From Gammaproteobacteria bacterium (GTDB lineage: Bacteria; Pseudomonadota; Gammaproteobacteria; DSM-16500), in contig JABDGK010000003.1 of assembly GCA_013286085.1 (NCBI GenBank), positions 19,115 to 83,114 of the forward strand: a DNA stretch of 64,000 nt, in the 5' to 3' direction. The notes under the pieces are model-generated. The model did not search any database. It was given only the letters and a program-made list of their open reading frames with translations, and was not told the DNA's origin. A program made the translations under genes and the position numbers. Positions 12,029 to 40,467 of the stretch are shown here, in pieces (position 1 is the first letter of the stretch; every line of letters starts with the position of its first letter).

Positions 12029-12367
12029 TACCGAGCCGCGCGCGTCAGCACATACCTTTATACACAAGTTAAAGAAGAACTGTCACCCCGCAAAAATTTC
12101 GTCCACAATAAGATTGAGAAAAATGCTGTTTCACGAAATTTTGTGCGGGGCCTGGTGAATAACCTTGGGGTGGAGCGTCTTTTTTTCAAAATTTGCACCG
12201 GGCCCCGCACAAAAACGCGAATTGGATTTTGTTTCCTTTTCACAAAAAGTGGCGCGTTTTTTGCGGGGTGACAGTTCTTCTTTAACTTGTGTATAAAGGT
12301 ATGCGCGTCAGCAAGCGTCACTGGACTGAACGTCTTGTGACGCTTGCTGACGCACGCGGCTCGGTAA
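12029..12367. repeat. REP doublet (gagccgcgcgcgtcagcaagcg family) interrupted by a MITE
   Basis: Removing 12051-12313 restores a doublet homologous to 44955-45027. Confidence 0.9.
12051..12303. mobile_element. MITE-like element 1 (253 bp) with four-arm core
   Basis: Perfect 46-bp IR catacctttatacacaagttaaagaagaactgtcaccccgcaaaaa; 10-bp TSD cgcgtcagca at 12041-12050 and 12304-12313. Confidence 0.92.
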
Positions 12368-12391
12368 CAGCGACAAAAGTTGATTAATGTA

Positions 12392-12829
12392 TTAAAGCTT
12401 AGGATGTTGATGTATATCAGAAACATAAAGCAACAGCGTATGCCCATTCACAGCATAACCACCGCCATAACAGCCCAACCCAGAAATAGTAATCTTAGGA
12501 TCCCCAGGCGCTAAAAACTCGACTTTATACGCACAATCTTGTTTCCCTGTGAAAACAATACTAAAAACATCATTAGCACCAAGATGAGGGTAAACAACAC
12601 CGTAAGTTGCACTCATTTGATGCGCTGGGAGTAATGTTTTATTTTCTAATGTAGGAGCAAGAGACGCTTCACCTGCATCCAGTTGGAAACTAATACCGAC
12701 ATTTTGAGCAGTACGATTCTCCATTTGTACAAAAAAATGCGGAGTCGGGTCAGCCACCCCAAGAAAAGGTGTTGCCTGTACTGCTGTTGCAACCAATGCA
12801 CTACTTAAAAGCATTATTTTTTTAAACAT
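12392..12829 (-). CDS. Secreted hypothetical protein
   Basis: Signal peptide ending VQA; beta-rich; Cys pair. Confidence 0.75.
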   Translation of the reverse strand: MFKKIMLLSSALVATAVQATPFLGVADPTPHFFVQMENRTAQNVGISFQLDAGEASLAPTLENKTLLPAHQMSATYGVVYPHLGANDVFSIVFTGKQDCAYKVEFLAPGDPKITISGLGCYGGGYAVNGHTLLLYVSDIHQHPKL

Positions 12830-13028
12830 AAACTATCCATCCTTTGATCAAATAATAAGAAAATCGCCTAGATCTTAGCGGATTTTTTTGAATTTATAAA
12901 TAATAACGAAATACTTGCTATTCTTTTTAAGAGCACGCAAAATACCGCTGCTTTGAATTATTAGAGTGACAATGGTTACAATTTATAATAATTCATAATA
13001 AATCAAACAGTTAAGTATGCTTCACCAT

Positions 13029-13113
13029 GCGAAAGTGGCGGAATTGGTAGACGCGCTGGATTTAGGTTCCAGTAGGGTAACCTGTGAGAGTTCGAGTCTC
13101 TCCTTTCGCACCA
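13029..13113 (+). tRNA. tRNA-Leu(TAG)
   Basis: 85-nt cloverleaf with long variable arm, anticodon TAG, encoded CCA. Confidence 0.97.
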
Positions 13114-13325
13114 TTCTTTTTATAATCAACAGTTTCATTAATAGGCATTATTCATTATAATGTCGCGCAAAGGGACATCCTCTGGGGAAGCCCCTTATTT
13201 TTTTGTGATGAAAATTTCCTGATACCGGCTTTCCATATCATATGAAAAGCGGGCTGGACTTAAGAAAAAGCATATCCATGCGATATGCTTCATGGAATAC
13301 ACATTGGGTCATTATTGAGGTTATT

Positions 13326-38018: not shown

Positions 38019-38027
38019 AATACAACC

Positions 38028-38588
38028 CTAGTTAAATTTATATCCAAGATTAAGTATCAACGGGACAGTAATACCGGAATTATGCGCACATAAACGCCCA
38101 TTCGAATAATGCAATGCACTCAAAGTCGCATAAAATCCTTTCTTTTTACCAAAGAGCGCGCCAATCCCCACTTCATCTTGGAAAGTGTAATGCATACCTA
38201 AATTTTGCGTGGAGAAGCGTGTACGATTCACATATGCGGGACCAATACTTGCTTCTAAATAGGGGGAGAAATGCTCGGTTTTTGTCAAATAGAAACGTAA
38301 AACGGGTGCCAGCGCATAAATATTAATAACAGCATTTGATTTAGCACCATGAGCCCACCAGTGGCCAACACCACCTGCAAAATATAAATTAAAGTGCCCC
38401 CAAATAAGGGATTCTGGTTGATACCAAGCAACAGCACGATAACCATGCACACCCGCAGGATCTTTGCTTTTTAATAAAATCGGTAGCGTGACACCAAATT
38501 GAAAAGCGGTTGCAAATGCAGTGGAAGATATGAATAACGAGCCAATAGCGGCACAAGCATAGCGATTAAATTTGTTCACAAGTGTCAT
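38028..38588 (-). CDS. pagL: Lipid A 3-O-deacylase PagL-like beta-barrel
   Basis: FQD, HYSNG..NSG motifs, signal peptide; start 38588 has AAGG RBS. Confidence 0.85.
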   Translation of the reverse strand: MTLVNKFNRYACAAIGSLFISSTAFATAFQFGVTLPILLKSKDPAGVHGYRAVAWYQPESLIWGHFNLYFAGGVGHWWAHGAKSNAVINIYALAPVLRFYLTKTEHFSPYLEASIGPAYVNRTRFSTQNLGMHYTFQDEVGIGALFGKKKGFYATLSALHYSNGRLCAHNSGITVPLILNLGYKFN

Positions 38589-38727
38589 CCTTAACACAAT
38601 GATTTTTATATAATAACACATAGAAATCGCATTGAAAATAATACCATCCTCTAGTTGAGCAAACACAGGAAACATTGACAAAAAAGCCTAAAAAGCGCAC
38701 ACTTCCCCCTCTTTTTTCGAGGCGCCC

Positions 38728-40176
38728 ATGGCTACTACCGCAAGAGGCTTTTTCAACTCCACAGCCCATAAAACCACTCTCTTACGCGCGCTTGCCAGCA
38801 CAGCCTCGATGTGGCCCAACTCGACAGAGTTGGCGAATGTTACCGATACGGACGACAGCAATGATAAAGGCATTAACTTAGCCTCGAAAGAAGCGGTCAT
38901 TGGGGTTAGCTGTATTGCTGTAAGCATGGTGCTTATCACCGCTTTTTTTTGTGCCTCCGCCAAAAGAAGAAACCAAAATAGCGAAAGCATTATTTCCGTT
39001 CACATTAAAAGAAATAATGCACACTCATGTGGAGATAGCATTGTCATTCAACAATTAAATGTTAGTCGTGATCTCTCCGAAGAGGAGCAACTTGCAATTG
39101 AAGCAATAGGGCTGCGACCTTTTCTACTAAAAGAAATTACCGCCGTCATCCAAGATAAATTCGCAAAGAATGAGACAATCCAAGCCGGTTTAGCCATCCA
39201 ACAAGTCATTAATGTGTTTCTTCCACAAAGTAAAACAACACATGATATGGGTCCGTATGATTTAATAGAAGATATCACTGTAAAATACAATCCCAGAAAA
39301 AATCGTTGTAATTTCTTTGCAACCATACTACCACCCTTAACGCAAACAACACTGTTATTTGAAACCCTATTTGGCGCAGTGCAAGACCTGGGTTCAATGC
39401 AATTATCTCCGAGTATTCTTCCTATCAGTAGATCGGCAAGTAATGATATTTCGATTTTCCAGATCGTGTTATCAACTGTGTTTGGGTTGGGCATGTTATA
39501 CATCAGTCCTGGTCAAGCGTTCATGGGTGATCTTGGTTCAAAAATAGATAGAAAATTAATTAATTTATTTACCTGTAGAAAAGAAAATACCCCCTCTGAG
39601 CCTGCAGCAGATATATCGAAAGCCGTGAAAATTAAAATTCGCTTAGCACAGGCAGCTTTAGCGCTCTTTGTTTTAAATAGTTTGTACGCAGCGGTGATTG
39701 GTGACTATCAATCAACAGTTTCACTCAACGACAGAATTAATGCGCTCGATGATTCACTCATTCCACCGTGGGCTGTATTATTTTGCTCTATGATGGAGTT
39801 TGGCTTGAATCAATTAAATGATCCTGTGATGCTTTTTAGTGAATTACTCATGGGGACAACGTTAATTTATGCTTATTTCAATAACAAACCAAAACCAAAA
39901 GCGATAGCACAGCTTGAAGAAATAAAAACAGATGCCATGAAAAAAGATATTGTCGAAAAAGACGATGAAACAGGAGAAGCAGCGATAATACCAACTCCAT
40001 CGACACCACCACCAACAAATGGATTGCAGACACTTGGAAAGTTTTCTCCGAAACGTACAACCACACCGCCTGCCAATTCAACGCCTCCTAAAATTAATTT
40101 AACTAGCCATCAAGAAGACCTACGTCAACCACTCTTGTCAACAGAAGAGAAAAAAACATCTCTTACCAAAAATTAA
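38728..40176 (+). CDS. Multi-pass membrane orphan with Pro/Thr-rich tail, effector-like
   Basis: 482 aa, several hydrophobic segments, low-complexity C-terminus; GAGG RBS. Confidence 0.65.
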   Translation: MATTARGFFNSTAHKTTLLRALASTASMWPNSTELANVTDTDDSNDKGINLASKEAVIGVSCIAVSMVLITAFFCASAKRRNQNSESIISVHIKRNNAHSCGDSIVIQQLNVSRDLSEEEQLAIEAIGLRPFLLKEITAVIQDKFAKNETIQAGLAIQQVINVFLPQSKTTHDMGPYDLIEDITVKYNPRKNRCNFFATILPPLTQTTLLFETLFGAVQDLGSMQLSPSILPISRSASNDISIFQIVLSTVFGLGMLYISPGQAFMGDLGSKIDRKLINLFTCRKENTPSEPAADISKAVKIKIRLAQAALALFVLNSLYAAVIGDYQSTVSLNDRINALDDSLIPPWAVLFCSMMEFGLNQLNDPVMLFSELLMGTTLIYAYFNNKPKPKAIAQLEEIKTDAMKKDIVEKDDETGEAAIIPTPSTPPPTNGLQTLGKFSPKRTTTPPANSTPPKINLTSHQEDLRQPLLSTEEKKTSLTKN

Positions 40177-40202
40177 CAACACCTGTCTTTCCCGCCTTCG
40201 CG

Positions 40203-40467
40203 CAGTAGTGTCCGGTTAATCTGTGCATAAGTAGAACTGTCACCCCGCAAAATTATCAGCCACAGTTTTAAGAAGGACACAGAATTCGTTCTGATAATTT
40301 GTGCGGGGCCTGGTTGACGAACTTAAGTGATACGCAGTTTCTCTTAAAATTTGCACCAGGCCCCGCACAAAAACGCGAATGAAGGTTTATTTTTCTTTTA
40401 AAGAGAAGTGGCGCGTTTTTTGCGGGGTGACAGTTCTACTTATGCACAGATTAACCGGGCACTACTG
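40203..40467. mobile_element. MITE-like element 2 (265 bp): same core as 12051-12303, different termini
   Basis: About 50-bp IR cagtagtg(t/c)ccggttaatctgtgcataagtagaactgtcaccccgcaaaa, one mismatch; 10-bp TSD cgccttcgcg at 40193-40202 and 40468-40477, inside a tgtctttcccgccttcgcgggaaagaca REP. Confidence 0.92.

Follow-up and report, generated by a model that had tools for sequence, protein, structure and literature searches.

Two nested repeat elements, E1 and E2, were analyzed in a 64,000-nucleotide stretch of DNA (hereafter the window; contig positions C3:19115-83114) of the genome under study, G000. Both enclose an inverted pair of hairpins related to those that flank genes for single-strand-specific GIY-YIG nucleases of the Ssn family. 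The G000 assembly comprises 2.32 Mb in 107 contigs, with 40.6% GC and a completeness of 73%; its contigs carry C-numbers, and other genomes of the family carry further G-numbers. Because the ABC-F housekeeping protein encoded beside E1 is approximately 80–83% identical to proteins of named Legionella species, G000 is taken to be an uncultured Legionellaceae genome. E1 and E2 lie directly after stop codons, between convergent open reading frames (ORFs), and the sole ORF across E1 is a mechanical frame of 129 aa.

The boundaries of all parts were verified letter by letter (Table 1). E1 (12051-12303) consists of a 30-bp terminal inverted repeat (shell A), a 76-nt hairpin unit, a 40-nt spacer, a 77-nt inverted unit and the second shell, with a 10-bp duplication on either side. 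E2 (40203-40467) is ordered in the same way, with a 35-bp shell (shell B) and the duplication CGCCTTCGCG. The two elements share a core of approximately 205 bp, and each sits in a host palindrome of the repetitive extragenic palindromic (REP) type, designated 0A for E1 and 0B for E2. The initial annotation, made from the letters of the window, had described these elements as one core within unrelated outer inverted repeats. The letter-level check confirmed this, as the family-specific outer parts of shells A and B matched at 13 of 26 positions in a global alignment.

Comparison of the two cores also agreed with the earlier statement that the arms are conserved or covary while the loops have diverged. 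The stem ends were all common to E1 and E2. In the left inner stems 4 of 7 positions differed, each compensated on the opposite arm, and the loops and spacer were approximately 65–68% alike. The block common to both elements runs 5 bp past the TGTCA head of the unit on both sides (AGAAC / GTTCT), so that the A-specific shell measures approximately 21–22 nt and the B-specific shell 26 nt. When folded as single-stranded DNA, E1 reached −87 kcal/mol (z −15.5) and E2 −92.5 kcal/mol (z −17.5), and the predicted fold of each was one long outer stem with three hairpins. The E1 nest was absent from the orthologous site of the ABC-F gene in two sister species. For E2, the orthologous site was not recovered in any of five sister genomes. 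Approximately 700 bp downstream of E1 lies a tRNA gene (window about 13029-13110, plus strand; Rfam, 58.5 bits).

Table 1. Parts of E1 and E2 and of the host palindromes around them (window coordinates).
Feature	Position	Strand	Remark
Left arm of host REP palindrome 0A; its last 10 bp are the target duplication CGCGTCAGCA (12041-12050)	12029-12050		Unoccupied 0A elsewhere
Shell A, left terminal inverted repeat: ~22 nt A-specific, then AAGAAGAAC, which goes with the cargo	12051-12080
E1 core, left hairpin unit: TGTCA head, 17-bp stem with bulged G, loop starting with CCAC	12081-12156	+
E1 spacer, in the position of the ssn gene of the long form	12157-12196
E1 core, right hairpin unit: inverted copy of the left, head outward	12197-12273	-
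Shell A, right terminal inverted repeat	12274-12303
Second duplication copy (12304-12313) and remainder of host REP 0A, including its own hairpin	12304-12366
Host hairpin 0B, left half (NTS-like, TGTCTTTCCCGC...); its last 10 bp are the duplication CGCCTTCGCG (40193-40202)	40184-40202
Shell B, left terminal inverted repeat: ~26 nt B-specific, then AAGTAGAAC	40203-40237		B-type motif widespread in family
E2 core, left hairpin unit; inner stem covaries with that of E1	40238-40314	+
E2 spacer between units	40315-40354
E2 core, right hairpin unit	40355-40432	-
Shell B, right terminal inverted repeat	40433-40467
Second duplication copy (40468-40477) and right half of host hairpin 0B	40468-40486

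The core hairpin pair and a GIY-YIG gene

The core pairs two inverted copies, heads outward, of an imperfect 77-nt hairpin whose 17-bp stem includes a bulged G and whose loop measures approximately 32 nt, and the initial description of an inverted doublet of a CCAC-loop unit was thus accurate. In each unit an unpaired TGTCA head is followed by ten invariant outer pairs, broken by the single bulged G, then by seven variable inner pairs and the loop, which often starts with CCAC; the tail is CCTGGT.

Covariation within the unit was analyzed in an alignment of 29 distinct units from G000 and two sister species, which was almost gap-free over 78 columns. Stem cells were paired in 98.2% of cases, compared with 84.2% in shuffled alignments. 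Changes on both sides were observed in 7 of the 17 stem pairs, that is, in all seven variable pairs, and one-sided changes were nearly nil. The observed covariation score was reached in none of 500 shuffles, only 1 of 493 stem cells held a G-T pair, and every shifted register lowered pairing to 33–67%. Folding and covariation, proposed earlier as a check on the element, thus had a positive outcome. Because the two sides change in a Watson-Crick manner and G-T intermediates are almost absent, the stems appear to be kept as DNA hairpins. The covariation is the signature of a DNA hairpin held by selection or by arm-to-arm copying, and not of an RNA helix. In Rfam, neither the core nor the longer form described below matched a family.

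Ssn proteins are single-domain GIY-YIG nucleases of approximately 94 aa. They cleave DNA in single-stranded form, a few bases upstream of a directional hairpin repeat, NTS/SRM (PMC11893778). The ssn genes typically lie between inverted copies of this repeat; for the Neisseria meningitidis protein SsnA, the layout is 'NTS-ssnA-NTS' (Chenal et al. 2025, PMC11893778). A census of the core in G000 yielded 11 intact short pairs that carry no gene, one split copy (C15) and two long forms (C2:18407-18937 and C9:56639-57172; copies of approximately 613 bp), in which the outer and central arms are as in the core. Both long forms enclose a 102-aa ORF between inverted hairpins. The two units around the gene are identical, loops included; the short cores are heterodimers.

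The 102-aa ORF matched the Pfam family GIY-YIG (PF01541, positions 1–77 of 78, E 3e-14) and no further domain, and its two intact copies share 98% identity. A PDB sequence search with this protein returned only weak matches to UPF0213 GIY-YIG entries (E 0.002–0.005). Homologs were present in 45 of 86 family genomes. At 42–61% identity (E 1e-25 to 1e-35, Legionellaceae), the hairpins flanking the homolog matched the Neisseria NTS consensus almost letter for letter, with heads outward. The clade of homologs with at least 69% identity has the long-head unit instead of the NTS-consensus hairpin, and metagenomic relatives at 70–88% identity also adjoin units of the long-head type.

The published SRM search pattern gave 15 matches in G000, compared with 1–6 in shuffles, and none of them lay beside the 102-aa genes. 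The head of the unit, (T/C)GTCA, and its first stem bases agree with the 5' half of this pattern, which fails to find the unit because the stem and loop are far too long. An entire long-stem clade of Ssn repeats in Legionellaceae is thereby overlooked. Judged from its sequence and layout, the core probably consists of two long-stem Ssn repeats without a gene, namely the repeats that flank an Ssn-family GIY-YIG nuclease gene. By type, these would be a long-stem variant of the TGTC/CGTC-tagged REPs, which are also named Ssn-related motifs. Since two G000 copies hold the nuclease gene between the same hairpins, the core stands to Ssn as REPIN stands to RAYT.

Other small GIY-YIG genes were also observed. 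A second Ssn-like family is represented by the 142-bp direct repeats at window positions 2790-2931 and 4999-5140, which are its upstream hairpin module; the hairpin of this family combines a CGTCGT head with a long stem and a loop of approximately 35 nt. An intact 96-aa GIY-YIG gene of this family is present at C5:33510 between inverted copies (C5:33300-33990), and window positions 2940-2985 resemble the truncated start of such a 96-aa-type gene. A third small GIY-YIG gene (C44:16929-17225, L032; 101 aa, 31% identical) adjoins half a palindrome of the 0A type, and 0A may be the cognate repeat of this gene.

Copies, duplications and targets of the shells

Shell A surrounds seven copies in G000 (C3, C60, C1, two on C12, C7 and C15). 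Those on C3, C60, C1, C7 and one on C12 are 99–100% identical, the second C12 copy is 95% identical, and the C15 copy consists of two 100%-identical pieces parted by an insertion of 2.7 kb. Perfect 10-bp duplications were found at five of the seven. The insertion point is constant in all copies, in the stem of the ~70-bp palindrome 0A, and does not shift when the duplication has other bases, as in C1 (CCCTCACGGT). Elsewhere in G000 there are thirteen 0A palindromes that are unoccupied. The split C15 copy (C15:28490-31478, L033) is interrupted within its spacer, with a 9-bp duplication, CAAAATTTG, around the insertion of approximately 2.7 kb; this insertion contains a fragment of an ISL3-family transposase (Pfam E 3e-59) and a reverse-transcriptase fragment, and adds a further nesting layer.

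Shell B surrounds four copies (C3, C32, C38 and C6; 92–98% identity), two of which have perfect 10-bp duplications. Their insertion site is the loop of 0B, an NTS-like hairpin that fully fits the definition of the CGTC/TGTC-tagged REPs. The commonest form of 0B (TGTCTTTCCCGCGAAGGCGGGAATCTAT) is one base off the Neisseria NTS core, although the host belongs to Legionellaceae, and the exact TGTCATTCCCGCG form was found in G007. Sixteen unoccupied 0B-like hairpins, with both loop orientations, were counted in G000.

Shell C is a 41-bp inverted repeat that bounds both gene-bearing copies. These are approximately 96% homologous, the homology ends exactly at the outer ends of shell C, and no clear duplication was seen. 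The composite shelled elements are thus the copied units, and homology between copies stops at the outer shell ends. For A and B, with their 10-bp duplications, this supports the earlier view of a multi-copy unit bounded by its outer ends. Both have the features of miniature transposable elements with inverted repeats (MITEs): terminal inverted repeats, a duplication of fixed length, multiple near-identical copies and no gene.

One B-shelled copy (C38:15478-15741, L022) has a left unit of B type and a right unit identical to that of the A family, including its loop; its flanks are inverted. Units are therefore exchanged between the two families, and by its composition the C38 copy is a recombinant of A and B.

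Association of the core with its shells

E1 and E2 probably represent two families of non-autonomous elements of approximately 255–265 bp with terminal inverted repeats (TIRs), the interior of which is a gene-less Ssn hairpin pair. Shells A and B would be ends recognized by DDE-type transposases acting in trans. With the shells taken as such ends, the hairpin pair would be carried as a passenger, and its stems would be maintained as DNA hairpins, which would fit binding and cutting by a single-strand-specific nuclease as published for Ssn.

Ends that occur apart from this core are in line with such a role. A solo A end of 22 nt without a core is located at C2:41112-41133 (L034) in a 0A half-site, and the DNA after it is unrelated; it stems either from truncation of an element or from an A-type insertion sequence (IS), of which it would be the trace. 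An IS beyond this end was considered, and the downstream genes resembled type II secretion or pilus genes by eye, no family search being run. Among the 86 family genomes searched, no other had the A end, and its 21-mer had no match in metagenome contigs. A 16-mer of the A end, run over all species genomes, gave at least 113 single chance matches in unrelated taxa, none beyond 23 of 30 positions, the pattern being too short.

The B motif, GTGTCCGGTWAATC / CAnnnGTGTCCGGTWAATC, is conserved across genera of Legionellaceae and is not present in A. A loose pattern for B ends in 86 genomes returned mostly noise at two mismatches, and a tighter search in five genomes was informative. The motif surrounds the same core in G007 and inverted pairs of other, short canonical SRM hairpins in G064 and G057. 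In G086, which belongs to another genus, it bounds elements of 126 bp and 245 bp with unrelated cargo and with 10-bp duplications in another REP. B ends at contig ends of G086 were rejected as an autonomous IS, since they are copies of the 126-bp MITE, and a 395-aa ORF inside a solo B-like end of G043, examined as a candidate transposase, had no Pfam match and looked unlike a transposase by eye. The two end types claimed in the initial annotation were thus upheld. Of the shell-only copies that it had suggested looking for, the solo A end and the B-type ends with unrelated cargo were recovered; empty shells were not.

Naked cores, also sought on its suggestion, are present. One is at C9:24410 in G000, with an ortholog in the sister species G007; two are in G005, where single units occur as well; and many are in metagenomes. 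In a sample of 48–49 core pairs from metagenome contigs, many were naked and others lay inside at least seven unrelated perfect palindromes. Two arrangements in metagenome contigs were seen in addition: at L334:1-130 one hairpin unit apparently lies within the loop of another (by eye), and at L248:5663-6011 a 33-nt shell is present in mirror-image tandem copies that flank a core.

Several observations weigh against shells A and B as transposase-recognized ends. No autonomous IS with A or B ends, to which the shells were to be matched, was found in the 86 family genomes, in metagenome contigs or in G000, where the completeness of 73% leaves absence unproven; the transposase signal in the G000 assembly was a single weak DDE_Tnp_1 trace. 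The proposal of a doublet that travels with several transposases stands as to the two end types, and its transposases are a plausible inference. A likeness of the A end to the outside end of IS50 was considered, but plasmid BLAST matches were at chance level (E 0.7–9), and assignment to the IS4 family is not claimed. Most shelled metagenome cores are in palindromes without an IS-like feature, and B-type ends were present in only 4 of 48. No empty A, B or C shell was found. In three copies (C38, C12:13304 and L014 of G007) the flank outside the shell is inverted, not direct. In G088 (C4, L115:1313-1975) a complete unit of hairpin, ssn gene and hairpin, the hairpins being of another family, is bounded by degenerate B-like ends that have a duplication of approximately 10 bp, so that B-like ends might belong to the nuclease element itself, and the 9-mer AAGAAGAAC beside the hairpin head is common to shell A of G000 and the G088 element.

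Some of these points would fit a different origin of the shells, which we regard as unlikely. The Ssn element would move via a folded single-strand or palindromic intermediate, mirroring the DNA adjacent to its heads or having its arms homogenized by repair; A, B and C would then be its own outer layers, and the 10-bp duplications would stem from its own insertion into hairpin targets. The numerous unrelated perfect shells around metagenome cores, including the mirror-image tandems of L248, would follow from this, as would the inverted flanks and the ssn gene within B-like ends in G088. Shell C bounds both ssn-bearing copies without a clear duplication, and the two units of these copies are identical even in their loops. 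The lack of empty shells was also reported for two other species (PMC3733652). However, B-type ends also bound cargo without an Ssn-type hairpin, still with 10-bp duplications, and the solo A end lacks a core. Duplications of fixed length and CA-started ends are typical of DDE transposases, and we know of no strand-transfer activity in a single-domain GIY-YIG nuclease of approximately 100 aa. Shelled cores also persist in G007, where no intact close ssn gene was found at a threshold of E 1e-15.

It is very improbable that E1 and E2 are currently immobile and are kept by host selection as structural signals between convergent genes, for example as terminators or structured RNAs. Their position just past stop codons between convergent ORFs and their very stable folds would suit such signals, but Rfam held no matching family, the covariation is purely Watson-Crick with one G-T in 493 cells, near-identical copies with target duplications occur at unrelated loci, and the element is absent from the orthologous site in two sister species. 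The elements may act as terminators as a side-effect.

The nested arrangement would, as stated at the outset, be refuted if A and B were divergent ends of the same IS family and formed one ordinary MITE family, and this is largely ruled out: although both have CA-started ends, 10-bp duplications and CG-rich REP palindromes as targets, and might for these reasons be served by related transposases, their family-specific parts could not be aligned (matches at 13 of 26 positions), the B motif GTGTCCGGTWAATC recurs in different genera and is missing from A, the A end is confined to G000 among the 86 family genomes searched, and their target positions differ (stem of 0A versus loop of 0B).

For the Ssn hairpin pair as a passenger of two MITE-like families, two routes of the core into its shells both remain. 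The pair may insert into the center of ready-made palindromes, where single-stranded hairpin tips would suit a single-strand nuclease; the B ends with other cargo, the solo A end and the unit within a unit at L334 (by eye) point in this direction. Alternatively, shells may be built around the pair by mirror copying or arm homogenization, to which the lack of empty A, B or C shells, the inverted flanks in three copies and the mirror-image tandem shells of L248 point. Because the block common to A and B runs 5 bp past TGTCA and Ssn is reported to cut upstream of its motif, it is possible that the boundary of the cargo is set by nuclease cutting.

A broader proposal, which we put forward as doubtful, is that Ssn-hairpin modules are mobile and either seek or build palindromes. 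They would nest in the centers of hairpins (MITEs, Ssn repeats) or mirror adjacent DNA into new inverted ends, with the GIY-YIG nuclease setting the boundaries by cutting at a fixed distance 5' of each head. If so, an entirely new MITE family could arise from a hairpin pair that lies beside one IS end, which would provide a route both for the spread of CGTC/NTS-type repeats and for the birth of MITEs.

Relation to known repeat systems

The initial annotation knew of no named system with this layout. The core, however, corresponds to the flanking hairpin pair of the Ssn family (PMC11893778), and REP dimers within palindromes were reported in 2013 (PMC3733652). The arrangement is a layered variant of known repeat systems and not a new kind. 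New are the long-stem hairpin variant tied to one Ssn clade, the gene-bearing and gene-less forms side by side in one genome, and the use of one hairpin pair as cargo by two unrelated elements with TIRs and target-site duplications (TSDs) that themselves target REP hairpins.

How CGTC/NTS-type repeats spread has been a standing question since 2013. G000 unites in one genome two copies of the form that carries the nuclease, gene-less pairs with and without shells, two types of shell flanked by clean duplications, unoccupied targets and a recombinant copy. It makes testable which enzyme moves what, and whether a structured passenger helps unrelated transposable ends to spread.

The closest relative is Ssn/SRM, with which G000 shares a GIY-YIG gene of approximately 100 aa between inverted head-out hairpins, further dispersed copies of the repeat that lack the gene, the head (T/C)GTCA, and a host hairpin, 0B, one base off the Neisseria NTS core. 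In contrast to the published stem of 8–9 bp and loop of 4–5 nt, the stem of the G000 unit measures 17 bp and contains a bulged G, its loop measures approximately 32 nt, and its gene-less pairs ride within TIR/TSD elements. Mobility of NTS-ssnA-NTS has been proposed only as a hypothesis, its layout being likened to that of an insertion sequence (PMC11893778).

The REPIN-RAYT system (Bertels and Rainey 2011, PMC3116915; PMC3337134) likewise combines a non-autonomous inverted REP pair plus spacer with an enzyme gene that is present once or a few times and has the same hairpins on either side. A REPIN-like repeat unit of this composition is present in G000, but the gene between the hairpins encodes a GIY-YIG enzyme and not a Y1 transposase (RAYT), the tag is TGTC (head TGTCA) and not GTAG, and the pair also serves as cargo.

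For the CGTC/TGTC-tagged REPs, 'No dedicated transposase' was reported (Di Nocera et al. 2013, PMC3733652), and some families of REP dimers were always found inside longer palindromes, with no empty form (PMC3733652). The G000 unit has a TGTC tag and a tail, and its TGTC-tagged hairpins are mostly inverted dimers, often heterodimers, as in that class; its stem and loop are much longer than the 8–9-bp stem and 4–5-nt loop described there. Two of the enclosing palindromes of G000 also differ from those reported in having the hallmarks of transposable elements, namely multiple copies, duplications of 10 bp and REP targets that are specific.

REP-targeting IS and MITEs (IS1397, IS621; IS1111 in QMITE2 of Coxiella, PMC5896051) likewise insert at one fixed position within a REP hairpin. 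Unlike these, the inserting units of G000 are non-autonomous, have no known parent IS, and carry a cargo that is itself a REP-type pair.

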